Shown: positions 3,378-64,000 of the stretch, piece by piece
Position numbering within the stretch: the first letter of the stretch is position 1
Layout: each line of letters opens with the position of its first letter
IMG/VR virus record: IMGVR_UViG_3300033177_000258
From: a virus
Lineage: Duplodnaviria > Caudoviricetes
Reading direction: 5' to 3' (one strand)
Length of the DNA: 64,000 bases
Position numbers and translations under genes: made by a program
The notes under the pieces: model-generated
Database searches by the model: none
The model's input: only the letters and a program-made list of their open reading frames with translations
Told to the model about the DNA's origin: nothing

Positions 3378-3998
3378 ATGCAGTACAGCGGCACCCCCAT
3401 CATGGCCCTGGAGGCCCCGAGCCAAGAGCGCCTGATTGAGGCGTTCTGGTCATCCGGCTTGTGTGCGCTTCAGGTGGTGAACCCGAAAGTCTTTGCGCGC
3501 CCTTTGCCGGCGCAAGAGGGCGAGCACAACGCCGTGCACGACGCCGCGTCGGCGGCCCTGCGGTCCAGCACATTGTCTCGCTACGTCGCGCTGGACATGA
3601 CCCATAACGTAGAGCCGGAGACGATGGCGGCTGCCGTCGCGCTTTGCATGGTCACGCAGGCCGAGCTCCTCGTGGTCTCCGAGTACGGCCACTTCCCCAT
3701 GCTCTTCCGGCAACTGCTGCAGGTGAATGAAGTCGCCGACGCCGACGCACTCATTGCACTCGCTGGTCAGCTACTAGGTAAGGACCACGAAGAGCGACGC
3801 ATGAACATCCCCCTGATGGCGACGCTCTCCCTGCCGGTTGAGGGCGCGGGCGGCGTATCGCTCGGGGACGCGGACAAGGTGATGGAGCTCCTGCGTCTCG
3901 CGTTCAACAACGCGGCGAACATCAAGCCGGCCCCGGACCACATCATCATCCACGCCATGGCCAGTGTGGTCATGCCGAAACCCCTGTTGGAGGGCTAA
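3378..3998 (+). CDS. Hypothetical protein
   Basis: 206-aa ORF in operon, phage-like codon usage. Confidence 0.6.
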   Translation: MQYSGTPIMALEAPSQERLIEAFWSSGLCALQVVNPKVFARPLPAQEGEHNAVHDAASAALRSSTLSRYVALDMTHNVEPETMAAAVALCMVTQAELLVVSEYGHFPMLFRQLLQVNEVADADALIALAGQLLGKDHEERRMNIPLMATLSLPVEGAGGVSLGDADKVMELLRLAFNNAANIKPAPDHIIIHAMASVVMPKPLLEG

Positions 3999-3999
3999 C

Positions 4000-4827
4000 A
4001 TGGAACTGCACGTCTTTGGCACCCAAGAAACCATCCACCTCTCGTACAGCGAGATTCCGTGGGATGTAGACACGAAGCAGCGCACCGACCTGGACCCCGG
4101 CACCGGCGAACCCATGATGGAGTTCGTGCTCGACGCCGATGGCAAGATGAAGCGAGACGAAAACCTCAACCCGCTGATGCGGGCGGCGGACGGTAGCGAA
4201 GTCCCGGTGAAGACCGACGTGTGGGTCGAGAACCGCGCTTTCACCGTCCCCTTCGGCCCCTGCTGCATCAACCAGGAAGTCAAGCAGACGCAGTACGCCG
4301 ACCGCCCCGACGTGCAGGTCTGTCGCGGCACCTGCTGCCGCCAGCCGGTCTCAGTGAAGGTTAGCACCATCGCGGCCATCCTCAAGCACATGGATGGCAT
4401 CCTCAAGCACATGCCCCCGGCGAACGCGAAGCTGGCTTCGCTGGCGAGCCCGTTCCGCCACGAGTCCATCCGCCCGATGCCCGATGGCTCCTGTATCTTC
4501 TGGAACCCGGTCAACGGCCAGTGCGCGCTGTACAACTACGCCCAGGCCAACGGCCTGGATGTGAACCGCCTGCGGCCCATCCCATGCTCGCTGTTCCCCC
4601 TGCAGATTCAGGCCGGCTGGCTCGACCAGACCCCGCGCTACTTCGCGATGTTCATTGACCCCATCGTGATGCAGCAGCACAACATCGCCTGCCCCACGGC
4701 CGGCAATGGTGCCTGCAAGCCGGCGTACCTGAGCCTGAAGCGCGAGTTCGACACCGCCTTCGGGGAAGGCTTCTGGGAGGTCATGGTAGACGTGTATGAG
4801 CGGCACTTCAGACCAAAGCACGAGTAG
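4000..4827 (+). CDS. Cysteine-cluster protein (YkgJ/DUF3109-like)
   Basis: CRGTCC, GSCIF...CALY...RPIPCSLFPL; RBS GGAGGG. Confidence 0.7.
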   Translation: MELHVFGTQETIHLSYSEIPWDVDTKQRTDLDPGTGEPMMEFVLDADGKMKRDENLNPLMRAADGSEVPVKTDVWVENRAFTVPFGPCCINQEVKQTQYADRPDVQVCRGTCCRQPVSVKVSTIAAILKHMDGILKHMPPANAKLASLASPFRHESIRPMPDGSCIFWNPVNGQCALYNYAQANGLDVNRLRPIPCSLFPLQIQAGWLDQTPRYFAMFIDPIVMQQHNIACPTAGNGACKPAYLSLKREFDTAFGEGFWEVMVDVYERHFRPKHE

Positions 4828-4854
4828 GCTCACGGCGCTTTTCAGGTATATTCC

Positions 4855-5120
4855 GCAAGACGACGGCGACGGTAGACCCGCGCGGGACGAGTCAGAAGTG
4901 CTCGCGGTGTGGGCACGTTGCGCGGGGCAACCGCGTCAGCCAGTCAGAGTTCCAGTGCCAGAAGTGCGGCTTTCGAATCAACGCTGACCTCAACGCGGGA
5001 CGGAATGTGAAGGGGAAGTACCTGGTCCGAGAGGGCAGCGCCGTCTCGGGCGGGCCGCGTCAACCGGCCTAATGCAGCGTGTTGTTTGCGGCTGCAAGCT
5101 GCCTTCGGGTAGTGGTTGAC
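4855..5120 (+). mobile_element. Orphan tnpB 3'-end/omega-RNA cassette, cognate to TnpB 43960-45066
   Basis: Near-identical to the reverse complement of ~43905-44176 (KTTATVDPRGTSQKCSRC...NADLNAGRNV); ends ...GCTGCAAGC-hairpin-GGTTGAC. Confidence 0.88.
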
Positions 5121-5158
5121 GGTGGATGTTTACTACTATTGGCTTTGTGTAGAACGTA

Positions 5159-5596
5159 ATGTTCACAACGGGAATATCCCAATTGTTGGCTACCGCTAGC
5201 GAACGCGTGTCCACGCCCGAGGGTCTGTTCGCGGCTCTTGGGCGCCTGGAGACGTTCATCGTGGAGCTCTCAGAGTCGCTGAGCGAGAGCAAACCCGAGC
5301 ACGCCGTCGCCGCCGCGTTTCTTTCGGACGATGACATCGTGTCGGCTGTCCGCAGTATGTGCGCCGAGTATCTTCTCTCGGCCTGGTTCATGGGCAGCCT
5401 CAACGAAGCCATCAAGTCCAACTCGATTCCGTCGCAGCGCTTCACACCAGACGCCATTGTGAAAGCCATGACCAAGTTGCAGCGTATGGCCAAGCCGGTG
5501 GGCGAGACGGGAGCGAAGGTCGAGCAAGCCCTGGAAGCACTCATGCCCGCAGAAGGCACCGCAGCACCAGTTGCACTATCCGAGAAAGGATTGTAG
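5159..5596 (+). CDS. Hypothetical protein
   Basis: 145-aa ORF in operon. Confidence 0.55.
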   Translation: MFTTGISQLLATASERVSTPEGLFAALGRLETFIVELSESLSESKPEHAVAAAFLSDDDIVSAVRSMCAEYLLSAWFMGSLNEAIKSNSIPSQRFTPDAIVKAMTKLQRMAKPVGETGAKVEQALEALMPAEGTAAPVALSEKGL

Positions 5597-5612
5597 CCAG
5601 AGAGGAATCGCA

Positions 5613-8231
5613 ATGTCAAACAAAGTGGATAAGAGCCCGGTCGTCAGCACGTCTGTCCGTAGTCTCGCTGCCGCCATCGGCGTCAAGGAGCTGGATGTCT
5701 CGATTGCCAAGATGGCGTTCGTGCAGGGCATGAAGCGCGAGCAGATTTCCACCGCGCTCGGGCTCAGTTTCCGCAACGTGCAGGCCCGTCTGCACACGTT
5801 CGCGCAGTTCCATAAGGCGGCCGACATGCCCCCCGTGGACGCCGTTGATGCGCTGATGGGAATGCACGACGACGACCTTGAGTACACCCCGCCTGCCGAG
5901 CGCTACCGCAAGCGGCTTCAGGCGCAGGCACAGGCCATTGCCCGCCTGCACGAGTCGCTCAACAAGCGACAGGTTGTCATTGACAACGTGGTCGCGGCCC
6001 TCGTCGCCGAGCTGGGCACCTACGACCCGTCTCCCTATACGCCCATCCCGATGGAGGGCCGCAAGGGCCGGCCCGAGTACGCCATGCTGGAGCTCAGCGA
6101 CTGGCAGTTCGGGTCGAACTGGACTGGCGAAGACGTGGCCGGTCTGAACGAAATGAGCACCACCATCCTGGAGCAGCGCGTCGAACTGCTGACCCAGCGC
6201 GTGCTCCACCTCATTGACCTGCAGCGCTCCGCCGTGAACATCCCATGGCTGGTCATCAACGCCCTGGGCGACTTCATCGAGAACGAAATCATCTGGGAGA
6301 GCCAGGGCACGTACATTGATATGAACGCCTCCGACCAGATGATGGCGTGCCTAGAGTCCATGGAGAAGATGATGGTGACGTTCCTCCAGCACGGCGGCTT
6401 CGAGGAAATTAGGATGTACTGTTTCCCCGCTGGCACGCCGGTCCTAATGGGCGACCTCAAGCAGAAGCCCATCGAGGATGTGTCGGTAGGGGATGAGGTC
6501 ATCACGCACACGGGAGCGAGGAGAAAGGTTACTCGCACCGGCTCCCGTATTGCTGGTTCGGTCGTATCCATCGAAGCGGAGGGTTTGCCCAAGGCCATCA
6601 ATGCGACTCCCGAGCACCCATTCTTCGCCATAAAGGGCGACGGGGTGGTTTGTGCTCGCTACCCATCTTTCCAGAAGATGGGACGACGTTGTTGGCTACA
6701 AGAGCGCGACGTAGAGCACCACCCATGTTGCAGTTGCAATTCCAGACCCAATCCCAAGGCGGAGTGGGTGAAAGCGGCCGACCTCGTAGAGGGGGATTAC
6801 TTGCTGGTTCCCACTACGTCGGGCTTGGTGGACAACCCGACCCCAATTGGCCCTGACCACGATGCCTTCTCTGGGTGTGTTGTGCGGCGATACGGAGAGA
6901 GGTTTTCGGTTAGCAACTCGGAGCGCGCAGCCATGCAGGAACGTATGGGTGAGGTCAAGTCCATGCTGCCATTCGAGTTCTCTCCCCGCAATATGCGCAT
7001 ACTTGGTTTGTGGGTGGCAGAGGGTAGTGTGGGGGGTCCGACTGAGGGACAGCCCAATTCGCTCAGCTTCTCGTTCGGGGCGCATGAGGCGGAAACGCTG
7101 GCGCGCGATGTCGTTGAGTGGGCGCGGGATATGGGGGTGTCTAATGAAGACATCCGGCAGAACCTCCAAAATGAGAATAAATCTGCATTGGTAGTTACCC
7201 TGAACAACACGATGCTAGCCCGTCTCTTTGTCTACCTGGCCGGGAAGGGGGCAGCGGAGAAGAGCCTCCATTCGTCGCTGCTGATGATGGACCCATCGCT
7301 CCAACGGGAGCTGCTGATGGGCATGTGTGACGGCGACGGGACACGCTATGAGAAGGGGGCTTGTAGGGGTGCGCATCTGCGCTACTACACAGTATCGTCT
7401 TCACTGGCTGAAGACGCCAGGAGATTGGCTCTTCGCTGTGGTTTCCTGACATCTAATCAGGTGAGTGAGAGAGGAGACGGTCGTCTGCCCCAGCATTCCG
7501 TATGCCTCTCCCACCCGGATATCCCAGGTTCGGGGGACGGGAACGCGGGGAGGACGAAGCGTTGGGGAGGGTACATCGCGTTGCCCATCAGACAGATAAC
7601 GGCGGAGACCGCCGAGACTGTGGTATACAACCTGGAAGTCGAGATTGACCACTCGTATGTGGCAGGAGATGCTGCTGTTCACAACTGCGTGGCAGGTAAC
7701 CACGGCAGAATGGGAAAGAAACCAAACTCTATGCACTGGAAGAACAACTGGGACTTCCTGCTGTACCGCTTCCTGGCGCGCCGCTTCAAGAACGAGCCCC
7801 GCGTCAAGTTCATCATCGGCACGTCGCCCTGGCTCGCCTACCGGCTGCCGCAGGCCCCGCGCTGGAACCACGTCATCCTGCACGGAGACACCATCCCGAA
7901 CAACCTGGGCATCCCGTACTACGGCATCAACCGCGAGGTCGCCAAGATGGCAACCCTGACGAACATGCCGGTGCACCTGGTCCACCTCGGCCACTTCCAC
8001 CAGCCGTCCATCCTGGACAACACCTACGGCGCCAAAATCATCAACGGCTGTCTCACCGGCGCCTCGCCGTTCTCAGTGGGCAAGTTGCTGATGGGTGGCC
8101 TGCCGCAGCAGTTGCTGTTCGGCGTTCACCCGGAACACGGGCGCACCTGGAACTACCCGGTGCTGCTCGCCAACATGCCGGAAGTCACTGCCGATGACGA
8201 AGGCGTCTACTCGTCCTACGTCGAGGAGTAG
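5613..8231 (+). CDS. Calcineurin-like metallophosphoesterase with N-terminal HTH/coiled coil, intein-containing
   Basis: LSDWQFG, LGDFIE, GNHGR, LHGD, LGHFH motifs; RBS GAGGA. Confidence 0.85.
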   Translation: MSNKVDKSPVVSTSVRSLAAAIGVKELDVSIAKMAFVQGMKREQISTALGLSFRNVQARLHTFAQFHKAADMPPVDAVDALMGMHDDDLEYTPPAERYRKRLQAQAQAIARLHESLNKRQVVIDNVVAALVAELGTYDPSPYTPIPMEGRKGRPEYAMLELSDWQFGSNWTGEDVAGLNEMSTTILEQRVELLTQRVLHLIDLQRSAVNIPWLVINALGDFIENEIIWESQGTYIDMNASDQMMACLESMEKMMVTFLQHGGFEEIRMYCFPAGTPVLMGDLKQKPIEDVSVGDEVITHTGARRKVTRTGSRIAGSVVSIEAEGLPKAINATPEHPFFAIKGDGVVCARYPSFQKMGRRCWLQERDVEHHPCCSCNSRPNPKAEWVKAADLVEGDYLLVPTTSGLVDNPTPIGPDHDAFSGCVVRRYGERFSVSNSERAAMQERMGEVKSMLPFEFSPRNMRILGLWVAEGSVGGPTEGQPNSLSFSFGAHEAETLARDVVEWARDMGVSNEDIRQNLQNENKSALVVTLNNTMLARLFVYLAGKGAAEKSLHSSLLMMDPSLQRELLMGMCDGDGTRYEKGACRGAHLRYYTVSSSLAEDARRLALRCGFLTSNQVSERGDGRLPQHSVCLSHPDIPGSGDGNAGRTKRWGGYIALPIRQITAETAETVVYNLEVEIDHSYVAGDAAVHNCVAGNHGRMGKKPNSMHWKNNWDFLLYRFLARRFKNEPRVKFIIGTSPWLAYRLPQAPRWNHVILHGDTIPNNLGIPYYGINREVAKMATLTNMPVHLVHLGHFHQPSILDNTYGAKIINGCLTGASPFSVGKLLMGGLPQQLLFGVHPEHGRTWNYPVLLANMPEVTADDEGVYSSYVEE
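6420..7685 (+). mobile_element. Intein (422 aa) with LAGLIDADG homing endonuclease
   Basis: Y|CFPAGT...ATPEHPF...LGLWVAEGS...LLMGMCDGDG...VYNLEV..DHSYVA...VHN|C. Confidence 0.92.
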
Positions 8232-14303: not shown

Positions 14304-14387
14304 AAGTACCTTGACATCTGAAACTTTTCCAGTGCTACCCATGACGTGGGTTCGATTTTGCGGAATACTTCTCTCTGGTGATGACCA

Positions 14388-26863: not shown

Positions 26864-28642
26864 ATGCAGCTTGACCTCTTCGGAGAGAAGAAGCAACTCA
26901 CCTATACTTTCACCCACCACACCGTGGTGCTCAACCCGGTCGAGCCAGACCTCATCAAACTCACCGGGGGCCGCGTCACTGCTGCTGGTTTGGAAGTCCC
27001 CTACTTCCGCTGGCCCGAGGTCTCCAAAGCATTGGGCTTCGGGCTCCCCCAGGTAGACCAATTCCTTGGCGTCCTGAGCTCTGCTAAGCAGCAGGCGCCG
27101 GATGGTCTCAGCATCCCCCAGACCCCCTTCTACCACCACCAGAAAGTCGGCATCAACTTCATGTACTCAGCCCTGTCGTCCATGGGCTATGTGGCCAACC
27201 ACGACGAGCAGGGGCTGGGCAAGACCCTCCAGGCCATCGTGACGGCCGACATGGGCCGTGTGGCCTGGGGCGCCAGCAAGGTGTTGGTGCTGTGCCCGGC
27301 CTACCTGGTGCGCCAGTGGGCACGCGAAATCATCAAGTTCTCGTACAGCCCGGTGCTGGCTGTGCCGGGGGATTTCGAGGCTAAGCGCAAGGCGGAGTAC
27401 CTGGGGACGCTGGGCTACATCACCAGCATGGACAACAAGCGCCGGCTGCGCTGGGAGAAGGGCGAACCCTACTTCGTTGTGATGGGCTACGACAGCCTGC
27501 GCAGCAAGCCGATGCTGGCGGCCGCGCTGTCCCATACCTGGGACCTGGCCATCCTGGACGAAATCACCTGCGCCTACAACTACAAAACCCAGCGCGGCAA
27601 GGGTACCCGGTGGGTTCTGGGCCGAGCTCTCAAGCGCATCGGCCTGACGGGTACGCCCGTCATGAACCGCCCTATGGATGTTTGGTCGGAACTCGACCTG
27701 CTGTCGGGCATGGCCCCGCCTGAGCCCTGGTTCGTGGACCGCTACTGCGTGGTGCGCAAGACCAATGTGGAACTCAAGGGGCGGCAGGACGCAGACGGCA
27801 ACCCGGTCAACATTGACATCAGCTACATCAAGGGCTGGAAGAAGCGCAAGACGCCCGAGCTGGCTCCCGCCATCGAGCGCGTGAGCATCCGGCGCCGGCG
27901 CGCTGAGGCGACAGACCTGCCTCCCATCCAGTACCGGGTCTTGACGGTTGAGCTGGCCGACAAGCAGAAGTCTGCCTACAACAGCATCGCCGAGAGCGGC
28001 ATGGCGGTGGTGGGGAACTGTCAGATAGACGCTACCAGCAGCGACCTGACGAAGCTGACGTACCTGCGCATCGCGGCCGATGGTCTGCAGCACTGGGGGG
28101 TTCGCGCCAGCGGCAAAGCCGACGCGGCCCTGGAAATGCTCAAGGACAGCGAAGGGACCCCGACGCTCGTCTTCACGGCGTTCGAGAAGCTGGCTCACGA
28201 CATCTACGAGCGTGCCTGCAAAGAGGGTCTGCGCTGTGGCATAGCCACCGGGGAAGAGACGGCACAACAGCGCGACGAGGTGATGGTGGCGTTCCAGGAC
28301 CGGCAGGAACTTGACGTGGTGGTCACGACATACCAGGCCACCCAGTTCGGGCTCAACCTGCAGCGGGCGGAGCACGTCATCCTCTGCGGTATGATGTACA
28401 ACCCGAAGATGATGGAGCAGTCCATCACTCGCGCCCACCGTCTCGGCGGCTCCAGCAAGACGCTGGTGACCCTGCTGCTGTCGGAGGGCACCGTGGACGA
28501 CCATATCTTCAACAACATCATCGGGGACAAGGCCGAGCTCATTGAGACGCTCAAGGTGGCCGGAGACATCGAAGCCATGATGAAGCAAGAGCCGCAAGCC
28601 TACATCCCCGAGCCCAAACGGAAGCGAAAGACCAATGGGTGA
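26864..28642 (+). CDS. SNF2-family (SF2) helicase
   Basis: DEQGLGKT, LCPA, ILDE, LTGTPVMN, GLNLQ, EQSITRAHRLG. Confidence 0.9.
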   Translation: MQLDLFGEKKQLTYTFTHHTVVLNPVEPDLIKLTGGRVTAAGLEVPYFRWPEVSKALGFGLPQVDQFLGVLSSAKQQAPDGLSIPQTPFYHHQKVGINFMYSALSSMGYVANHDEQGLGKTLQAIVTADMGRVAWGASKVLVLCPAYLVRQWAREIIKFSYSPVLAVPGDFEAKRKAEYLGTLGYITSMDNKRRLRWEKGEPYFVVMGYDSLRSKPMLAAALSHTWDLAILDEITCAYNYKTQRGKGTRWVLGRALKRIGLTGTPVMNRPMDVWSELDLLSGMAPPEPWFVDRYCVVRKTNVELKGRQDADGNPVNIDISYIKGWKKRKTPELAPAIERVSIRRRRAEATDLPPIQYRVLTVELADKQKSAYNSIAESGMAVVGNCQIDATSSDLTKLTYLRIAADGLQHWGVRASGKADAALEMLKDSEGTPTLVFTAFEKLAHDIYERACKEGLRCGIATGEETAQQRDEVMVAFQDRQELDVVVTTYQATQFGLNLQRAEHVILCGMMYNPKMMEQSITRAHRLGGSSKTLVTLLLSEGTVDDHIFNNIIGDKAELIETLKVAGDIEAMMKQEPQAYIPEPKRKRKTNG

Positions 28643-29605
28643 CGCTGCCGCCTAAGCGGCTTCTCGCTTGCGCGAGCTACGTGCTGGGCGTCCCCCGGAA
28701 CTACCTGGAGCGATGACCCCAGGATACTTGTAGGTCCAGACGTTGGGCACGTCACAGCCTGGAACAAGCGCACCTTGACTCCCGATGCAGCGGATGTTGG
28801 CGGAGCCTACCACGTCACGTGGGGCGGTGAAGCCACACTGCTTGCAACGGTAGGTCCGCTGGCACTTGTTCCTAGTTCCGCAAACGGGACACGTTTGGGA
28901 ACTGTACGCCTCGCCTACGGTGATTGCTCCCGCAGTCTTGTAGTCGAGTTGCGTAATGAGCCTGCGGTTGCAGGCTTGCGATACTTGTTGGGTAGTCTTT
29001 CGAGACATCTTCTGGGACGCGTCATTGAACGGCTCACCGACGTAGCACTTGGCACCAGGGAAGGTGTCGGCGACGATGCGGGTGGCCTTGTGGGTGAGGT
29101 CTTTGACGCGATTCTCGCTCTTCTTCAGCAGCTTACGTTTACGGCGCTGGAGTCTGCCATACTGGCGAGAACCCCGGTGACAGTTCGACTGCTTGCCGCT
29201 GAGCGACGCGAGACGCTTGTTGCGCCACTGGACCGTGGCTTTGAGTTCGCGGCCCGAGACGAGCACGGCAGTCTCGCCGTCTGTGGCGGCGAGGAGGGTG
29301 TTGACACCAAGGTCTATGCCGAGGGTGGGGCCGCCTGATTGCAGAGCCATTTCGCAGTCCCATATAAGCTCCAGTTTGCCGTAGGACAGGCGAGCCTCCA
29401 TGAGGCGGCCAGCGGGCCATAGCATACGGCGCGGGATACGGATAAAGAGCGCCCCGGCACTTCCGTTAGGGAGCCTCAATTCGTAGCCGTTGATGTTGGT
29501 AACGGCTTGATTGGTGTAGATGATGTCGTGGAACTCGGGTTTGCGCCAAGGGTACTTGACTTCACGCCCATTGCGGCGCAGGGCGGCCGCAGCTCCAACA
29601 AAATA
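28639..29605 (-). mobile_element. tnpB: 5'-truncated tnpB element (IS200/IS605-derived) with intact omega-RNA end
   Basis: GIDLG, HKAT, SSQTCPVCG...CKQCG...RDVVGSANI; no proper N-terminus; ends GGCAGCGTCAC; TCAC also at the left junction. Confidence 0.82.
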
Positions 29606-29618
29606 GGTGAGATGCCCA

Positions 29619-30140
29619 ATGATGGATAATGTACCTGCCGATGTGGACCTGGTGGAGAGCGGCGCGACCTGCCCCATGTGTGGCCGAGCCACCCGCGTAC
29701 TGCTTAGCTGTTCTCTCTGTGAGACGGAAGTGTGCGAGCTTTGCATGGTGGGGCACTCAGCCCGCCACGCTCTAGAGAGCGCGCAGAACCCGGTGCCGGC
29801 AGGCTACCTGGTGCCGCGCCCCATCTGGGCAGCCATGGTTCACAAGACCCACCCCGACGTGGTGGTATGTTCTTCAAGATTCTCTGCAGCACTTTCCCCC
29901 TTGCATGTTCTGGACGGACCTGCTATTATGGGTGAGGTCGCAACGGGGGCATCCAAGCTGTACCAGGTGGCGACCATCGTTGCGCCTAACGTGGATGATG
30001 GGCCGGAGTTCATTGGAGCCTGCGAAGTCATGGCCAGCGACACGTTCATCGTAACACGCACCGCAGAACCAATCGAAGGCTATACGCAACAACAGGAGCA
30101 CGACGGATGGTTTCTTCTAAAGAGGGAGCTTGCCCCCTAA
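29619..30140 (+). CDS. Hypothetical protein with N-terminal zinc finger
   Basis: CPMC..CSLC..CELC..H. Confidence 0.55.
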   Translation: MMDNVPADVDLVESGATCPMCGRATRVLLSCSLCETEVCELCMVGHSARHALESAQNPVPAGYLVPRPIWAAMVHKTHPDVVVCSSRFSAALSPLHVLDGPAIMGEVATGASKLYQVATIVAPNVDDGPEFIGACEVMASDTFIVTRTAEPIEGYTQQQEHDGWFLLKRELAP

Positions 30141-35321: not shown

Positions 35322-35403
35322 GCAGGGCTGCTATAGGTCAGCCATACGCGGCAGCGGCCATATCGCTAGCTGCGAACCCTGGGGTTGCACCATGGTAGTT
35401 GAC
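35322..35403 (+). ncRNA. Orphan TnpB omega-RNA cassette, cognate to TnpB 30935-32041
   Basis: GCAGGGCTGCTATAGGTCAGCCATACGCGGC...GCTAGCTGCGA matches the 3' end of that tnpB; ends GGTAGTTGAC. Confidence 0.8.
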
Positions 35404-35440: not shown

Positions 35441-37453
35441 TTGGCTACTAATCGTCTCAATGATTTAAGTAATACGGAGTGGGTTCGCTTTACGAAGAGT
35501 TGGGAAATCATCAACCCATCCCAGCGCAGCAAGGACAAGCGCGCGCACCCGGCCGCCTACCCCGAGGAGCTTGTGCTCCCCTACATCAGCTTCTTTACCA
35601 AGCAGGGCGGCTGGGTCTTGGAGCCGTTCCTGGGGAGCGGCAGCACCCTCATCGCCGCCATGAAGCTCGGGCGGAACGCGGCCGGCATCGAGCTCAACCC
35701 CCACTTTGCCGGCATCGCGCGCGACCGCATCCGAGACGCCAGGAAGCGCCTGGACGTGTCAGAACGGGTCGCCCTGGCCACCGGGCCCCAAGTGGACCAG
35801 CACGTGCTCTGCGGCGATTCTCGCTTCGCTGTGGACATCCTGGGCAAGTCCCTGCCCGGCCAGCAGTTCGACTACTGCATCACCAGCCCGCCGTACTGGG
35901 ATATGCTACACCAGAAGGGCGCCGAGAACCAGCAGAAGCGGCGCGACGAAGGCCTCCAGACGGTCTACAGCGACAGCACCGATGACATGGGTAACATCCA
36001 TGACTACGACCAGTTCGTGACGGAGCTGGTGCAGATGTTCGCCAGGCTGGCGCCCCTGTTCAAGCCGAAAGCCTACCTGACCGTCGTCCTGCAGAACGTC
36101 CGCAAGGGCCCCAAGGTGTACCCGCTGGCCTGGGACTTCGCCATCCAGCTTGACAAGACCGGCGCGTTCGACCTGAGCAACGAGAAGTTGTGGTGTCTCC
36201 CACCAGGGGAGAAGGTTTGGACGACGCGCGGCTCCCTACCCATAGAAGATGTCAACGAAGGCGATGAGGTGCTGTCACACGATGGGGCTCTGCACCGAGT
36301 CACTTCCACTATGTCCCGCCCATGCGAAGGTCCGGTGGTGTCGCTGAAGCCCAAATTGCTCAATCGCGCAGTACGGCTCACGCCCGAGCACGAAGTCTTG
36401 GCTATGCCCAGGGCGACTTACTTTCACGCCAACGGCAAGCGTTTCTTCGAGCCGTTCGCCAACGCTTATCGGCGGGGTCCGCGATGGGTGCCTGCGGGGG
36501 AGCTCAAAGACGGCGACCTTGTGGCTTTCCCGGTTCCTACCGACGAGCGAGACGCAGGACCGATTGATGTGCTGGCCCATATGATGGAGCCCGAAAGGTG
36601 GGCTATTGATGGGGACAGGCTACGCCTGGACAGAGTTGGGGGCAGGGTTTCGACGCTGCCGAGAACCATCGAGCTCACAGACGAGTTCATGGAGTTGGCT
36701 GGATGGTATATCGCCGAAGGTAGCTCCGGCGTTTCTGGGGTTTGCATCGCGAACCATGCGGAAGATGTGAATGTCCGGGTCGCTTGCCTAGTCAGGAAAG
36801 TGTTTGGCCTCCCCGTCAACACCACCCGGCGCGGTGTCTGGTGTTACAGCCGCATGGCTGGTCAGTTGCTGTCTTCGTTGTTTGGGGCAGACTCATACAC
36901 CAAGCGCATCCCCGCCGCCTGGCTGCACCTGCCGGTTGACAGGCAGAAGCATCTGCTGCGCGGGATGTGGGGAGGTGACGGGCATAGCCGCCACGACATG
37001 GTGGGTTACACCACCGCGTCAGAAGAGCTGGCCTTGGCAACTATGTATGTCTCAGCCAGGTGCGGGGCTGTTCCCTCCATTCGGGTCGAGTCGGGCAAGT
37101 ACCACCACCTCCAGTTTAGGGCTACCGACGCCCACAACATGCGGTCGCAACTGGCGCTTCCCGAGGAGCAGGAGGGCGAGTTCCGGCGCAGCCAACATTG
37201 GTTCAGGGATGGATTGGTATGGATTCCTCTCAGTCGCGTCTCTCTTGAGACCTACTCTGGCCCGGTCTACAACCTGTCGGTACAGGAAGCGAACAGTTAT
37301 ACCACATCGGCTTTCGTCGTCCATAATTGCCAAGACAACAAGAGCCTCTTCCCATTCGCGGTGGGCTCGGCGTTCGTCGCCAACCAGCATCACCACTACT
37401 GCCTGAACTTCCGCAGACCCGTACCCAACACAGCAGAGGTAACAGACGAATGA
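35441..37453 (+). CDS. DNA methyltransferase (N4-C type, SPPY), intein-containing
   Basis: NRLNDLS..EW..FTKSW, HPAAYP, LEPFLGSGST, GIELN, TSPPYW; TTG start after RBS AAGGGAG. Confidence 0.88.
   Translation: MATNRLNDLSNTEWVRFTKSWEIINPSQRSKDKRAHPAAYPEELVLPYISFFTKQGGWVLEPFLGSGSTLIAAMKLGRNAAGIELNPHFAGIARDRIRDARKRLDVSERVALATGPQVDQHVLCGDSRFAVDILGKSLPGQQFDYCITSPPYWDMLHQKGAENQQKRRDEGLQTVYSDSTDDMGNIHDYDQFVTELVQMFARLAPLFKPKAYLTVVLQNVRKGPKVYPLAWDFAIQLDKTGAFDLSNEKLWCLPPGEKVWTTRGSLPIEDVNEGDEVLSHDGALHRVTSTMSRPCEGPVVSLKPKLLNRAVRLTPEHEVLAMPRATYFHANGKRFFEPFANAYRRGPRWVPAGELKDGDLVAFPVPTDERDAGPIDVLAHMMEPERWAIDGDRLRLDRVGGRVSTLPRTIELTDEFMELAGWYIAEGSSGVSGVCIANHAEDVNVRVACLVRKVFGLPVNTTRRGVWCYSRMAGQLLSSLFGADSYTKRIPAAWLHLPVDRQKHLLRGMWGGDGHSRHDMVGYTTASEELALATMYVSARCGAVPSIRVESGKYHHLQFRATDAHNMRSQLALPEEQEGEFRRSQHWFRDGLVWIPLSRVSLETYSGPVYNLSVQEANSYTTSAFVVHNCQDNKSLFPFAVGSAFVANQHHHYCLNFRRPVPNTAEVTDE
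36194..37327 (+). mobile_element. Intein (378 aa) with LAGLIDADG endonuclease
   Basis: W|CLPPGE...LTPEHEV...AGWYIAEGS...LLRGMWGGDG...VYNLSV..ANSY...VHN|C. Confidence 0.92.
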
Positions 37454-43848: not shown

Positions 43849-43959
43849 GGCGATTCCTCCTGCGCTTTCGTTGGGTTTGAGTGAGTAGCTTCTCGAAGCC
43901 GGCCCATCAACCGCCGCTACGCTTTGGTAACGGCTTGCAGCCGCAAACAACACGCTACT

Positions 43960-45066
43960 TTAGGCCGGTTGACGCGGCCCACTCGGAACGCCTATAGCCT
44001 CCCGAGTTAGGTACTTCCCCTTCACATTCCGTCCCGCATTGAGGTCGGCGTTGATTCTGAAGCCGCACTTCTGGCACCGGAACTCTGACTGGCTGACGCG
44101 GTTGCCCCGCGCGACGTGTCCGCACCGCGAGCATTTCTGGCTCGTCCCGCGCGGGTCTACCGTCGCCGTCGTCTTGCCGCCTTCCTCGGCTTTGTAGGCC
44201 GTGAACGCGAACAGTTGGGCGAAGCTCCACCCGTGGAGACGACGGTTGCCATGCCGGCCGAAGTCAGCGCGGTCACGGATTCCAGTCAGGTTCTCGAAGA
44301 CGAGTACGGCTCCTGGGTCAACGGACTCTACAAGGCGGCGGGACAGTACGTGGTCGCAGTCGCGGCGAAACCTAGCCTGCTTGCCCGAGAGCTTACGTAG
44401 CTTACGACGGGCGGAGCGAGTGGCCTTTGCCTGCAAGGCTCTGCGAAGACGGAAGTACCGCTGTTCGACGTTGCGCCAGCGCCGCTCACCGAAGAACTGG
44501 GCTTCGGAGGTGACGGCCGGGCGGACAATGCCCAAGTCTACACCGACAACCTCGCCGGTTGCGGTGTAGACGGGGGCGGGGGACTCTACAACGACGTGGA
44601 GCCAGAACTGGTTGCGACGGTAGACGAGTTCGGCCGAGGTGGGCTTCCAGGTCTGGAGCCGGGTGAAGCTGGCGTCGAATGTGACGCGCTGGCGACCGGC
44701 GACCGTGGCGAGGGTGGCCCAGCCTTCGGTGAGGGAAATGGTGTAGGACTTTACATCATACCTGACGCTTTGGCATCGCGACTGCGGGAGTGTCGCCGCC
44801 TTTCCTTTGGCGAGACGCACTCTTACGCTCTGAAGAGCTTCTGTGGCTTTGGCTCTGGAAGAGCATACCAGGCGGGAGTGCAACGATGGGTATTGCTCGC
44901 GCAGGGGGTAGTAGGTAGCATGGTGAATGGCCACGCCATTGGTTGTCTTGTTCTTCCAACCGAACTCGGCAGCCACGTTGAAGCAGGCCGTGTACTGCTC
45001 CATGGTAGCCAGGAGAGCTTCACGACCTGCTTTCACATCGAGTTGGACGATGATGGTACGCTGCAT
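43960..45066 (-). CDS. tnpB: RNA-guided endonuclease TnpB, intact; omega-RNA end at ~43905
   Basis: GVDLG, FENL, TSQKCSRCG...FRCQKCG...NADLNAG; downstream GTCAACC...GCTGCAAGC...GGTTGAT. Confidence 0.93.
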   Translation of the reverse strand: MQRTIIVQLDVKAGREALLATMEQYTACFNVAAEFGWKNKTTNGVAIHHATYYPLREQYPSLHSRLVCSSRAKATEALQSVRVRLAKGKAATLPQSRCQSVRYDVKSYTISLTEGWATLATVAGRQRVTFDASFTRLQTWKPTSAELVYRRNQFWLHVVVESPAPVYTATGEVVGVDLGIVRPAVTSEAQFFGERRWRNVEQRYFRLRRALQAKATRSARRKLRKLSGKQARFRRDCDHVLSRRLVESVDPGAVLVFENLTGIRDRADFGRHGNRRLHGWSFAQLFAFTAYKAEEGGKTTATVDPRGTSQKCSRCGHVARGNRVSQSEFRCQKCGFRINADLNAGRNVKGKYLTREAIGVPSGPRQPA

Positions 45067-45148
45067 TGGGAGTTCTATGGAACCTCAGTTCATGCTGGTT
45101 ACGCATAGAAGTATTCCGTGTTGCGGCGTGCCGTGTCGAGAAAAGTTG

Positions 45149-45484
45149 CTACGTGATGACAACGCCAGCATCCGCCAGCGTGCGCTCCACCCGCAGCTTG
45201 GCTTTGTACGCCACGTTCCGCGCGTCGTTGCGGTCATACGGCGTACCATCCTCGTGCTTGAGGCCCAGGTCCATCACCCGGTCGGCGAGCTTGCCATACA
45301 ACTGCCGGCGCGTCAACTTCTTGACGGCTGGGATGGAGAACTTGCCCACCTGGCTGTCCACGAGCATGACGCCCGCCACTTTGCAGGTGTGGCGCACTAC
45401 ATTGGTCGCCTTCGGCTGCGTCTTGGCGGCAGCCTTCGCCTTCGGGCTCTTGGCGGGCGCACTGCCCGCAGCCTTCGTCTTCAT
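45149..45484 (-). CDS. Hypothetical basic protein (K/A-rich N-terminus)
   Basis: RBS AGGAGG; headed by the repeat element. Confidence 0.65.
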   Translation of the reverse strand: MKTKAAGSAPAKSPKAKAAAKTQPKATNVVRHTCKVAGVMLVDSQVGKFSIPAVKKLTRRQLYGKLADRVMDLGLKHEDGTPYDRNDARNVAYKAKLRVERTLADAGVVIT

Positions 45485-54474: not shown

Positions 54475-54953
54475 CGCGAGCCGCGTCCGCGACCTGACTC
54501 ACAAGGCTACGCGCACGATTGCGGATGCTTTTCCTGGCGCAAAGTGCTATGTGGGCGAGCCATTCAACGACGCGGCCCAGAAGATGGGTCGTCGTCAGGC
54601 CCAACAAGTCTCCCAGGCGTGCAATGCCCGCCTAATCACGCAACTCGGCTACAAGACTGCGGGAGCAATCACCGTAGGCGAGGCGTACAGTTCCCAAACG
54701 TGTCCCGTTTGCGGAACTAGGAACAAGTGCCAGCGGACCTACCGCTGCAAGCAATGCGGCTTTACCGCCCCACGTGACGTGGTAGGCTCCGCCAACATCC
54801 GTTGCATTGGTATGCGCGGCGAGCTTGTTCCAGGCTGTGACGTGCCCAACGTCTGGACCTACAAGTATCATGGGGTCACTGCTCCAGGTAGTTCCGGGGG
54901 ACGCCCGGCACGTAGCTCGCGCAAGCGAGAAGCCGCTTAGGCGGCAGCGTCAC
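54475..54953 (+). mobile_element. tnpB: tnpB 3' fragment with omega-RNA end (copy of the 28639-29605 family)
   Basis: RVRDLTHKATRTIADAFPGAKCYVGEP...RSSRKREAA*; ends GGCAGCGTCAC. Confidence 0.85.
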
Positions 54954-54966
54954 GCACCTATCATCC

Positions 54967-59987: not shown

Positions 59988-60334
59988 GCTTGCGGTCTTC
60001 CGGTGTCAATGCCACTGGTTCATCACTCCTTGGTAGAAACGCAGAACGCCCCACAACGAGACCGGCTGTGTGGGGGAAGCCCCTCCGAACAGTGTCCCCA
60101 TGCTCGGGCCGGCTCATATCACAGCAGGTCTCGGTTGCGGGCGCTGCGCGCCCTTCTGCCTGCCTCCCTGCGGGAGCCACGATGTGGGGCGTTCATCATC
60201 AGCTTACATCATTGGGCGCACGATTGCGGGCGCTGCGCGCCCTTCTGCCTGCCTCCCTGCGGGAGCCACGATTGCGGTCAGGCCATCGCGTCAAGCCGGT
60301 GCAGGGAGTCCGTCGCCCCGCCAGTGCAGACGGG

Positions 60335-60496
60335 TTAGTCTTCACCTTCCACCAGCACGACCTGCCCGTTGTGGTTGTCGGTCCACGCCTTGCCCACCAG
60401 CGAGCCATCGGCCCGCCGCACCTCCACGGCGCTCTCCCCGGCCTTCAGAGCCGCCTGCGCGGTTTCACGTGAAACGCAGTACAGGGTGCCCTTCAT
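60335..60496 (-). CDS. Small hypothetical protein
   Basis: RBS AAGGAG before MKGTLY. Confidence 0.5.
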   Translation of the reverse strand: MKGTLYCVSRETAQAALKAGESAVEVRRADGSLVGKAWTDNHNGQVVLVEGED

Positions 60497-60957
60497 ACGC
60501 TCTGCTCCTTCTTGGTCCACGGATAGGGGTAGCCCCCGAGCAGGCCGTCCACGTACTCCTTGAGGCTCAGCCGGTGGCACTCGTTGCCGATGATGAGGGT
60601 CTCCTTGGTGAAGCAGGCGGGCAGCTTGGGCAGGAACTTGAGCCGGGTGTGCTTGTTGGGCTTGCTGGTGCTCTCCAGACAGCCTACCACTTCCCAGGTC
60701 AGCCTGTCCACGTTGGCCCGCAGGTACACGGTGTAGGACTTGAAGCGCCGGGGGTGGTTCAACTTGCCCCAGACGCCCTCGGTGTCGCCTCCGCTCAGGT
60801 GGAACACGTGAGTCGGCGGCTTAGCATCACCCGCAGCACAGAGCCCGGCGATGTCCTCGGGGTCCAGGTAGGCCCCCACAAAGTGCGAGCCGCTCAGCCG
60901 CCCCCGCGTCATCTCGCAGCGCAGTTGCCGCTCATGTTGCCAGACAATCTCTTGCAT
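60493..60957 (-). CDS. Hypothetical protein
   Basis: RBS GGAGG; headed by the repeat element. Confidence 0.6.
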   Translation of the reverse strand: MQEIVWQHERQLRCEMTRGRLSGSHFVGAYLDPEDIAGLCAAGDAKPPTHVFHLSGGDTEGVWGKLNHPRRFKSYTVYLRANVDRLTWEVVGCLESTSKPNKHTRLKFLPKLPACFTKETLIIGNECHRLSLKEYVDGLLGGYPYPWTKKEQSV

Positions 60958-60987
60958 CAGGTTGACCTCCCGGTCGGTAGTCTATAC

Positions 60988-61992
60988 TCAGGTGCGCACG
61001 ATTGCGGGCGCTGCGCGCCCTTCTGCCTGCCTCCCTGCGGGAGCCACGATTGCGGGCGCTGCGCGCCCTTCTGCCTGCCTCCCTGCGGGAGCCACGATTG
61101 CGGGCGCTGCGCGCCCTTCTGCCTGCCTCCCTGCGGGAGCCACGATTGCGCCCATCTTCCGGCGTTCGATGAGGCCTCCGAGGCGGCTGAACTGCAGGTC
61201 GCGCACGGTCGGCACGGGTACCTCGTTCAGCAGCGCCGTCTTGAGCCAGTCAATCACCTTGTCAGGGACCTTCAGGCGTCCAAACCCGGCCCGCGCGTAC
61301 CACGTCCGCTTGAACTTGCCCTCCACCGGGAAAGGCCCGGTGTCCCCGTTGTAGCTGTAGCCGTGCCCGATGACGACCTGCGCCCCCTCGCCGAGCTTGG
61401 GCCGCATCACCAGCGCCGCCGCCATCCCCAGGAACTCCCGCTCGCCGTCAGGGTCCAGCGCCACGAGGTCGGTTGCCAGCCCGAGCGCCAGAGCCTCATT
61501 CGGTGTCAGCGCCACGTCCAGCACGGCCTTGACGGTCTTCACCGGGTAGCCCACGCTCGTATGCGGAGCCGCCCCCACGCAGTCGGTCCACTCGCCGGCC
61601 GGGAAGGTCCCGCCCGAGACGTTCAACTGCAGCGTCACTCCGTTGACCATCACCTTGGGGTAGCTCGCGCCCCACTCGGGCACCACGGTCACGTCTTCCT
61701 TGCGCACGATGCAGTACAGGTCAATGCCCGGCTTAGCGGTCCAGAACTTCGACCCGTTCTGCCGGTAGTGCTTGTACTCATGGACGCGGCAGACCCGCGC
61801 CAGGAGCCGGGGGTGCTCCAGCTTGCTCAGCGCCGTGCCATAGGACGCCCCCATGACCAGCATCAGGTAGGGAGCCCCGTTGAACGTCACGTGGTACGCC
61901 CCCCGCTCGCCCGGCAGCGAGGTGAACGTCACCTTCTCGGTATCGGCATCGAGCCGCACGGGCTCATTCTCCACGATGATATGCTTAGCCAC
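60988..61992 (-). CDS. Hypothetical protein whose C-terminus reads through three 48-bp repeats
   Basis: GTG start after GGAGG, downstream of the repeat element at 62031; part of ORF 60988..62607. Confidence 0.6.
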   Translation of the reverse strand: MAKHIIVENEPVRLDADTEKVTFTSLPGERGAYHVTFNGAPYLMLVMGASYGTALSKLEHPRLLARVCRVHEYKHYRQNGSKFWTAKPGIDLYCIVRKEDVTVVPEWGASYPKVMVNGVTLQLNVSGGTFPAGEWTDCVGAAPHTSVGYPVKTVKAVLDVALTPNEALALGLATDLVALDPDGEREFLGMAAALVMRPKLGEGAQVVIGHGYSYNGDTGPFPVEGKFKRTWYARAGFGRLKVPDKVIDWLKTALLNEVPVPTVRDLQFSRLGGLIERRKMGAIVAPAGRQAEGRAAPAIVAPAGRQAEGRAAPAIVAPAGRQAEGRAAPAIVRT

Positions 61993-62092
61993 GGTAGGGA
62001 ACCTCCGGTGTGTAGTGGTTACACTACTGCGTGCACGATTGCGGGCGCTGCGCGCCCTTCTGCCTGCCTCCCTGCGGGAGCCACGATTGCGG

Positions 62093-62607
62093 CCACAGAC
62101 GGCTGCGCCGCCCATCGGGGTACACGAGGTACACCTGGTCTTGGATTCCGTTCTGGCCCCCGCCGGACGAGGACGGCTGCGTCCGCTCCAGATACCCCAG
62201 CCGCTCCTGCCCCGCCTAGCCTCAGCCTCCGAGGGATACGTGCCTTCCAGCGGATACGGGTGCCTGTCAAAGGTGTCGTACCCCTCCGGCCTCCACACTT
62301 CCGGCGCCACGGCGCACGATTGCGGCCGCGAAGGCTCCGCCCGCCGCACGTAGTCCCGCCGCATCAGCCACGCCGGGAACCCCCGGTTGGACGGCAGCTT
62401 CCGCCCATCCAGCCCGCTCAGGTCAAAGTCGGTCGGCGCCAGCGTCACCAGCGTCGGCGTCGGCTCCGGTGAACGCTTGCTCACGACACGCCCATCTACC
62501 ACCACCGTCTGGTAGGGATAGGCGAAGCACAGCTTGTAGCCCCTGCGGTCGCTCAGGTCCTTGTGGGCCGGGTCCTTGAGAATGACGTACTCAGCCGCTA
62601 CCCGCAC
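62093..62607 (-). CDS. Hypothetical protein, in frame with the downstream gene through a 48-bp repeat; end uncertain
   Basis: RBS GGAGG before MRVAAEY. Confidence 0.4.
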
Positions 62608-63302
62608 GACCTCCCCGGCGCGCCCCGTAAGCAGTCTTCAGCATCGCCCTATCCTTCCCAGAGGGATTCGCCGGGGGAGAAGAATCACCCCACCATCAGA
62701 ATCATCATCCTACAGCCCACTGCCTTCTCATACGGCTCCCCCGTATAGGTAGGCAGTATCATCACCCGGTCATCACCAGGTCATCACCATAGTGCTCACA
62801 CTGGTCAGAGAAAGCGTCAGGATGCTCAGCGTAGTACGCTTTGGTACAGCAGGCCACCTGTACCCAGATACGTTCCTGTGACGGGTCCGTGCTACCTGCC
62901 TCCCTGCGGGAGCCACGATTGCGGGCGCTGCGCGCCCTTCTGCCTGCCTCCCTGCGGGAGCCGATGGGGAACCGTCCGAACAACCGTTCAGACAACCGAA
63001 TCGGTGTACCGATACCCTACCCCCAACAACCGAATCGATTGCGGAGTGTCAGATTCCCGTTGACATATTTCTTGGTTTCGTACCCGGCCAGTGGTCGGGT
63101 AGCCGGCAGCGCGTATTCTACGTAGTAGAATAGGGGAGCAGGATTGCGGGTGGGAATGGGAAAAAAGGGGAGGTGGTGGGAGGGGAAAAGGAAAAAACGT
63201 TCTGCCAGAGGCACAAAACTCTCTGTTCGCCCCTGTTCACCAACGCTCGAACGCTCGAACGCTCGTCCATCCGCCCGAATCCACGCGCAATCCTCCCTTA
63301 GT

Positions 63303-63396
63303 CGGCCCATTCTTCTCTTCCCGGCCCATTCTTCTCTTCCCGGCCCATTCTTCTCTTCCCGGCCCATTCTTCTCTTCCCGGCCCATTCTTCTCTTC
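63303..63396. repeat. 19-bp tandem repeat x5
   Basis: CGGCCCATTCTTCTCTTCC. Confidence 0.95.
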
Positions 63397-63548
63397 AGCG
63401 TTCCATCGCGCCGTTCAGCGTTCCATCGCGCCGTTCAGCGTTCCATCGCGCCGTTCAGCGTTCCATCGCGCCGTTCAGCGTTCCATCGCGCCGTTCAGCG
63501 TTCCATCGCGCCGTTCAGCGTTCCATCGCGCCGTTCAGCGTTCCATCG
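63394..63548. repeat. 20-bp tandem repeat x7 plus partial copies
   Basis: TTCCATCGCGCCGTTCAGCG. Confidence 0.95.
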
Positions 63549-64000
63549 GGGCGTCACAGACCGTTACCAGGCCGGCGCAGGCCCCACAGGATGCTTCGGC
63601 GTACTTGCGTACCGTTCCCGAGCGCCTGAGAGGCCCCAAGCGGTGCCCGTGAGCCCTGGCCTGGGCTCTAGGTCTGGCATGGCGTGGTTCACCTGTTCCT
63701 TCCGGTTCTTTTCCGGTTCTTGGTGGCTTCTTGGCAAGAAAACATCCCTCTATACCGGGGGAAACGTCCAAATGTACCCGTTTGGGGGGGCAAACTACCG
63801 GAAGGGCCCTTCCGGTTCTTGCCTATCCCACTGCTGTGCGCACGATTGCGGGCGCTGCGCGCCCTTCTGCCTGCCTCCCTGCGGGAGCCACGATTGCGGG
63901 CGCTGCGCGCCCTTCTGCCTGCCTCCCTGCGGGAGCCACGATTGCGGGCGCTGCGCGCCCTTCTGCCTGCCTCCCTGCGGGAGCCACGATTGCGGGCGCT

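Follow-up and report, generated by a model that had tools for sequence, protein, structure and literature searches.

TnpB is the ancestor of Cas12, and what it is known to do in nature is to restore its own transposon once this has been excised. To our knowledge, a plasmid experiment is the one demonstration of transposase-free spread between genomes, which for phages has been proposed in theory. PATE-like elements with omega-RNAs for a TnpB supplied in trans, and restorative homing by TnpB, have been described (Meers et al., 2023; PMC10055086), and a review covers TnpB-driven spread through a plasmid population without TnpA and proposes that phages infecting the same cell may be entered by 'non-restorative homing' (PMC13565253). 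Here we describe the anatomy of a phage locus, its homologies, its presence/absence polymorphism and its conserved RNA structure. The locus lies in a 64,000-nucleotide (nt) stretch of viral DNA (Duplodnaviria; Caudoviricetes; IMG/VR record IMGVR_UViG_3300033177_000258), referred to below as the window. Between two genes, gene1 and gene2, the window carries an orphan element (4834–5120) that has no coding capacity, a left-end stub, and an intact scaffold and right end, which are the features of PATE-like elements. Judged from these features, it probably derives, in the manner of PATEs, from an IS200/IS605-type element of the tnpB-only kind by loss of the protein, and would as such be a guide cassette served in trans and aimed at element-free relatives. 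Coordinates are those of the window and refer to the + strand unless stated; P followed by four digits denotes proteins and L followed by three digits denotes contigs of relatives.

The counterpart of the guide is found where the element is absent. Contigs L041 and L042, which encode a 276-amino-acid (aa) variant within the gene1 protein cluster (P0134), belong to element-free sister phages with a 41-nt overlap of gene1 and gene2. In the window this old overlap is now in three pieces: one to the left of the element (O1), one after its right end (O2, the guide) and one further to the right (O3). In L041/L042 the 16 nt directly after GTCAT agree with the guide at all but positions 4 and 14 (14/16; 12/13 in the 13-mer). 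The same overlap is present in L003/L004 (gene1 73% identical in protein, about 72% in DNA), where GTAAT is followed by an exact 13/13 match to the guide at the orthologous position. For this exact 13-mer, 0 of 300 shuffles gave a chance match (expectation about 2e-6), and in the window the guide has no other match with three or fewer mismatches in a homologous context. Homing calls for element-free alleles that hold the target, and both pairs of contigs supply them. The architecture of the empty allele recurs in the distant relative L003/L004, and its sequence is no chimera of O1 and O3; we therefore take it to be the ancestral state.

The first-pass annotation of the window had recognized most of the short motifs on which this comparison rests. 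GTCAT at 4780–4784, the in-frame V-D-V-Y 13-mer of gene1 at 4785–4797 (G GTA GAC GTG TAT; the gene1 stop is 4825–4827), the cassette end ...GGTTGAC at 5120 and, directly 3' of it, a second 13-mer that encodes V-D-V-Y (G GTG GAT GTT TAC, 5121–5133) are all where it had placed them. The two 13-mers are identical at nine of 13 bases as it had counted, and the four differences, at guide positions 4, 7, 10 and 13, all fall at third codon positions; over 16 positions O1 has six mismatches to the guide (4, 7, 10, 13, 14 and 16), four of them within the first 13 nt. Its reading of the guide as a copy of the 3' end of the upstream gene is upheld for the ancestral 3' end by the exact 13-mer of L003/L004 and by the GTCAT and 14/16 match of L041/L042, so that the guide-matching allele which it had proposed to seek in relatives is now found in both. 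The full-length parent, the gene overlap in the empty allele and the duplicated and rewritten start of gene2, all described below or above, were absent from that annotation.

Comparison with L041/L042 indicates that the gene ends on both sides of the element have been rewritten within nearly unchanged surroundings. The left flank (3716–4790) has one mismatch in 1075 nt and the right flank (5194–5693) one in 500 nt, and the flanks are 99.7–99.9% identical to the empty allele. Between them, O1 (4791–4827) has mismatches at 4791, 4794, 4797, 4800, 4806 and most positions up to the stop, and O3 (5159–5193) differs at 22 of 35 positions; O1 and O3 thus differ from the empty allele at about 30–40% of sites against 0.1–0.3% in the flanks, a divergence more than 100 times as high. 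Most of the changes fall on third codon positions and recur every third base in the frame that each copy retains; codons 2–12 of gene2 (5164–5193) have nine synonymous and two nonsynonymous changes, with a single mismatch in the 250 nt that follow. The rewritten gene end is seen only in element-bearing genomes. To that extent the earlier suggestion that the element supplies a recoded gene end stands, but this end lies outside the element proper, the left end of which starts at about 4834 (GGCG, as in L036), 3' of the gene1 stop plus the six bases GCTCAC. The block from O1 to O3 would have come either from a divergent lineage, imported with very sharp boundaries, or from change under strong selection.

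The middle piece has decayed differently. The guide has kept the ancestral base at the very third-codon sites that differ in O1 and O3. Its first 13 nt are unchanged with respect to a phage that is about 72% identical in DNA, whereas the rest of O2 is unrecognizable and the synonymous sites of O1 and O3 are saturated; no significant similarity of 5134–5158 to the ancestral overlap, O1 or gene2 was found. This uneven decay fits selection on the 13 nt of the guide proximal to the target-adjacent motif (TAM). The target itself lies in codons of the residues E-V-M inside the dual-coding stretch, and these residues are invariant in the protein alignment of gene1 orthologues. Homing endonucleases prefer conserved-codon targets of this kind. 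Each known empty allele has one synonymous difference at a point where recognition would be sensitive, at TAM position −3 in L003 and at guide position 4 in L041; as only two alleles are available, it is no more than suggestive that these may be resistance changes.

A full-length parent of the orphan is present at the same site. The Logan contig L009, from another sample, carries a full-length tnpB at exactly the orphan's position and is 96.6% identical to the window over 4.8 kb of left flank, while the matching right-hand contig, L039, continues from the right end into the guide and downstream sequence seen in the window. The O1, guide and O3 of L009/L039 are the same as those of the window. 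L009 and the window diverge at 4856/4857 through one deletion, with GC microhomology at 4855–4856, which spans from base 24 of the left end to approximately tnpB codon 297. On this alignment the orphan is an internal-deletion derivative of the full-length element at the same site. The JGI contigs L037 and L038 are identical to the window at this locus. Three haplotypes are therefore found among the sister phages, which for the orphan locus and the second locus (described below) are none/none, full/none and deleted/full. The −10-like hexamer TATATT noted earlier is indeed present, at 4847–4852 and not at 4848–4853, but no sigma-70-type promoter was found with it; the hexamer belongs to the left end of the element and is also present in full-length L009. 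In the window, the ATG in the guide and the filler that follows it give a short upstream open reading frame (MFTTIGFV*). We note that in the full-length haplotype a T-to-G change at position 80 of L039 (window 5150) removes the stop of this frame; the ancestral ATG is then in frame with gene2, and the change also creates a GGAG 6 nt 5' of the gene2 ATG.

The RNA portion of the element is well preserved. The consensus fold of the last 200 nt of nine family members contains 33 pairs, 22 of which show compensatory changes. All consensus helices are retained in the orphan, and the two scaffold copies in the window have compensatory differences in two helices. By covariation, then, 4921–5120 is a genuine omega-RNA scaffold. 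Rfam holds no family for it; only tRNAs were reported at the gathering score, with chance-level matches on the cassette. Seven other family members agree on the right end at 5120, each with the CAAGC-hairpin followed by a TTGAC-type terminus: six end in TTGAC or CTGAC and L016 ends in TTTAC. An alternative right end 8 nt further on (GGTGGAT), given by MAFFT, was ruled out by the same family comparison of termini.

No sigma-70-type promoter and no + strand terminator was found near the cassette. The motif CGGAATACTTC occurs eight times in the window against 0.5 expected (at 14361, 19023, 20003, 26061, 32048, 39633, 45108 and 48571). Both intact tnpB genes have it upstream, and it is also found in the tRNA/nuclease region; it is probably a phage promoter element common to mobile nuclease genes.

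A candidate nuclease for the orphan is encoded at the second locus. The predicted product of the intact tnpB (Table 1) has the GVDLG, VFENL and NADLNA motifs and a CxxC...CxxC zinc ribbon and is homologous to solved TnpB and Cas12f structures, so that the RuvC D-E-D residues and the zinc ribbon are both in place in this copy; the orphan retains only the final 71 codons. Another intact TnpB, P0007, is encoded on the same 215-kb contig as the TnpB of the window. The C-terminus encoded by the orphan's fragment (the last 216 nt of the gene) is identical to that of P0007, and 4855–5099 is a 245-nt inverted copy, 89% identical, of the intact tnpB 3' end (44177..43933, − strand); the TnpB copies are mosaics of one another. 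We note that 4855–5099 and 43933–44177 thus form a 245-nt inverted repeat 38.8 kb apart, and recombination between the two could invert the intervening segment.

The near-isogenic contigs L034/L035 (99.2–99.7%) are element-free at the second locus and have four small genes (1.5 kb) there instead, of 82, 166, 53 and most of 147 aa (window 43906–45183 versus L034 5303–6835); no nuclease domain was found in these four by Pfam. On the left side homology stops 34 nt before the stop of the neighbouring gene U, the last 11 codons of which form a diverged patch of 68% identity in a flank that is otherwise 99.7% identical. In L036 the element directly follows an ordinary U end. The room between the gene U stop and the tnpB start is 82 nt, which leaves no space for tnpA inside the element. 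The first-pass annotation had pointed to GTCAT at the left flank of this tnpB; the motif is present (45158..45154, − strand), but lies inside the conserved coding end of gene U and not at the left-end junction, and so gives no evidence for a TAM. Two other candidates at this locus were rejected. CACG(AG)TAG, considered as a shared left-end start, lies within the native coding end of gene U, and the L036 left end follows a differently spelled U end. A reading of the second-locus guide as a copy of the gene U end was not significant at either the DNA or the protein level. For L010 the empty site can be rebuilt by removal of the element: a ribosome-binding site then meets a start codon, with TTCAT at the side of the TAM. 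A TCAT-like TAM would thus fit two independent cases, L041 (GTCAT) and L010 (TTCAT).

Table 1. Features of the orphan locus and of the second locus, with the basis on which each was assigned.
Feature	Position	Strand	Basis
gene1, 275 aa, DUF3109/Rv0495c-like, complete	4000..4827	+	Open reading frame, Pfam match, aligned orthologues P0004, P0134, P0005, P0006
GTCAT, TAM-like, within the gene1 E-V-M codons	4780..4784	+	Same GTCAT 5' of the target in L041/L042
O1, resident rewritten copy of the old gene1/gene2 overlap, gene1 frame only	4785..4827	+	Comparison with L041/L042
5' stub of the element left end (23 nt, holds TATATT 4847–4852)	4834..4856	+	Collinear with L009 left end
tnpB 3' fragment, last 71 codons and stop (zinc ribbon, RuvC-III), no start codon	4857..5072	+	Translation
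omega-RNA scaffold, overlapping the tnpB 3' end, to the right end	4921..5120	+	Covarying consensus fold, TTGAC-type terminus
O2, guide, relic of the ancestral overlap	5121..5136	+	Matches to L003/L004 and L041/L042
Filler, unrecognizable, from guide to gene2	5137..5158	+	No significant similarity
O3, rewritten overlap copy, gene2 frame only; gene2 start	5159..5199 (gene2 5159–5596)	+	Comparison with L041/L042
Intact tnpB, 368 aa, candidate trans-acting nuclease	43960..45066	−	Pfam OrfB_IS605 (PF01385), Cas12f1-like_TNB (PF07282)
Right end (to 43906) and guide (43905..43890) of the intact copy	43890..43959	−	Homology to L034/L035 resumes exactly at 43906

The mechanism that we propose, with moderate confidence, is action of the cassette on element-free relatives. 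The cassette would be transcribed together with gene1 and gene2, and an intact TnpB encoded elsewhere in the genome would load the orphan omega-RNA. In a mixed infection the complex would cut element-free relatives within the dual-coding overlap, at the target next to TCAT. Either repair by recombination would then carry the O1–element–O3 block over to the cut genome (non-restorative homing), or the competitor would be destroyed. The carrier would be protected by the six mismatches of O1 to the guide, and at its right end by TTGAC, which would not serve as a TAM. More tentatively, and with less than even odds, the locus may be a natural RNA-guided gene drive in a phage. On such a reading the target, a dual-coding overlap of 41 nt, would hardly be able to mutate; the rewritten, guide-mismatched sequences would serve as replacement ends for both genes; guide-only copies would borrow TnpB in trans; and the empty alleles would resemble drive-resistance alleles.

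Several observations weigh against the proposed mechanism. IS200/IS605 elements normally insert without target duplication, and the overlap is present here in three copies. These could have arisen by either of two routes, namely a tandem duplication with canonical insertion 3' of CTCAC, or an insertion at GTCAT followed by rescue duplications. At the second locus there is no duplication; the element replaces four genes there, and 1.5 kb separates its flanks in the empty allele. The inferred targets are preceded by GTCAT in L041, GTAAT in L003, TTCAT in L010 and GTTCT in L034/L035, which have only T-N-N-T in common, and the orphan's left end by CTCAC, a set compatible with TCAY-like motifs but too varied to define one. 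The sole near-isogenic empty allele, that of L041/L042, is mismatched at guide position 4, which may block cutting. No promoter was found for the orphan, and the deletion removed its copy of CGGAATACTTC, the motif present ahead of both intact tnpB genes; its RNA would therefore need read-through of the gene1–gene2 transcript. Finally, diverged mosaic patches separate the haplotypes elsewhere, for example with 16% divergence at 1747–1997, and ordinary recombination could import the block. At the end of a RecA-like gene, the window differs from both L041 and L009 over a sharply bounded patch (1497–1997) of up to 16% divergence, which points to frequent mosaic recombination in this phage population.

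The anatomy, and some of these observations, would be accounted for if the locus were a passive relic, a history that we consider rather unlikely. In this account the overlap was resolved by tandem duplication in a divergent lineage, the element inserted canonically in the non-coding middle copy, 3' of CTCAC, and the block was later moved by ordinary recombination, leaving a dying orphan. The guide match would then be a historical by-product, and the rewriting would reflect relaxed constraint after the two frames were uncoupled. The TCAC-like motif directly 5' of the left end (4829–4833) fits canonical insertion, and third-position change is expected once duplication of the overlap frees each copy of the other frame. 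The mosaic patches elsewhere in the flanks are of similar divergence, the promoter-like motif of the orphan has been lost and guide position 4 does not match the near-isogenic empty allele, all of which suits a relic. A neutral relic should, however, decay evenly. The middle copy has instead kept its first 13 nt as they are in L003/L004, the remainder is unrecognizable and the corresponding synonymous sites of O1 and O3 are saturated; this unevenness is the main argument against a purely passive history. Moreover, both edges of the imported block fall within a few bases of the duplicated overlap, the deletion wholly retained the RNA scaffold and a further protein-less cassette end occurs at 35322–35403.

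The same molecular evidence that supports the proposed mechanism would serve equally for a weapon against competitors, in which the guide only destroys related phage genomes, or a host or prophage copy, at co-infection and the cassette is not copied. Genomes of the L003 type, with about 72% DNA identity and still a 13/13 match to the guide, would be suitable victims, and homing endonucleases can profit by killing competitors too divergent for gene conversion (PMC13565253). In our view this is quite improbable as the whole explanation, since identical O1, guide and O3 occur in two backgrounds that are 3.4% apart further out, which suggests transfer, although a weapon and homing are not mutually exclusive. 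That the flank resembles the gene end by mere chance has a negligible probability. Nine of 13 bases within a few hundred is indeed weak on its own, but the reading is refuted by the L003/L004 and L041/L042 matches, which give an exact 13-mer and 14 of 16 at orthologous codons in two independent element-free lineages, after the same V-M codons, with scores reached by 0 of 300 and 0 of 1000 shuffles.

Other parts of the window carry further cassettes and repeats. The second protein-less omega-RNA end, at 35322–35403 (...GTAGTTGAC), precedes a guide coding for K-S-W. Some 90 nt further along this open frame (35489–35505) the methyltransferase gene reads T-K-S-W again, with ten of 12 bases the same as in the guide of this cassette, a repetition similar in theme to the gene2 side of the orphan locus. 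A truncated tnpB of another family lies at 28560–29700 (− strand), with the left junction ...TCTCAC|CTATTTT; 19 nt to its left and 16 nt to its right are similar (about 13/16, with one 3-nt gap), in the manner of a diverged target duplication, and a 357-nt 3' part of this tnpB recurs inverted at 54600–54956. At least seven occurrences of GCGCACGATTGCGG, preceded by CTTACA, lie in the 42–60 kb interval. The stretch 60100–64000 contains clusters of 48-nt tandem repeats and nine copies of a 20-nt tandem repeat (63354–63593). The gene after gene2 (5613–8231; L037 3455–6073) encodes 872 aa with weak Hint and LAGLIDADG matches, which suggests an intein with a homing endonuclease and hence another mobile nuclease beside the cassette.

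There was no DNA match among INPHARED phages, and IMG/VR gave no relatives of gene1, no match to the scaffold and only distant TnpB proteins. A metagenome scan with P0007 likewise returned distant TnpBs only, in a search that also missed the 215-kb contig of P0007 itself. Our literature search found no report linking TnpB, phage and recoding, no TnpB cassettes flanked by rewritten target duplicates, and no natural phage presence/absence alleles with a matching guide.

The locus is a natural test case, as the sister phages hold all three states, namely the empty target allele, the full-length element and the guide-only derivative. If the proposed mechanism is confirmed, RNA-guided nucleases would act as homing endonucleases in virus populations, the persistence of guide-only cassettes would be explained and a compact TnpB with several natural guides would be supplied.

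Comparison with the known systems indicates what is shared and what is particular to this locus. With the IS200/IS605 tnpB-only and PATE elements it has in common a TnpB with RuvC and zinc-ribbon domains, an omega-RNA that runs over the tnpB 3' end to the right end and a guide taken from the flanking DNA; a deletion derivative with both ends would likewise need TnpB in trans (PMC10055086). It differs in that it resides in a phage genome, the element has no tnpA, diverged target duplicates flank the insertion, and the left end is only about 85 nt long and carries a phage-wide promoter-like motif. As in restorative and non-restorative homing by TnpB, the guide matches the element-free allele, here beside a putative TAM; in those systems the element-bearing allele is protected by the element's parting the TAM from the target. 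In the window, however, GTCAT is still followed by the homologous O1, and any protection would have to rest on base changes, in the way of intronless homing. Here, moreover, a dual-coding overlap is the target, replacement ends are present for both genes, and the evidence is population-genomic.

A closer parallel in its setting is offered by the free-standing homing endonucleases of T-even phages, such as SegF (PMC13565253), in which a nuclease cassette also lies between conserved phage genes and has a conserved coding target. Here too, self and non-self would be told apart by substitutions in the neighbouring gene, and presence varies among sister phages. In contrast to those enzymes, recognition here would be by an RNA guide in place of a protein, and the guide cassette can exist without a nuclease gene. 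In engineered 'home-and-rescue' and 'cleave-and-rescue' CRISPR drives, a guide is directed against the wild-type form of a needed gene and the drive carries a recoded, guide-mismatched gene end. The duplicated, rewritten ends of both neighbouring genes correspond to the solution that engineers devised for such 'rescue' drives. The design of guide and recoded end is therefore the same; in the locus described here it is natural, based on TnpB and carried by a virus, with two genes rewritten, and its action as a drive is a candidate function.

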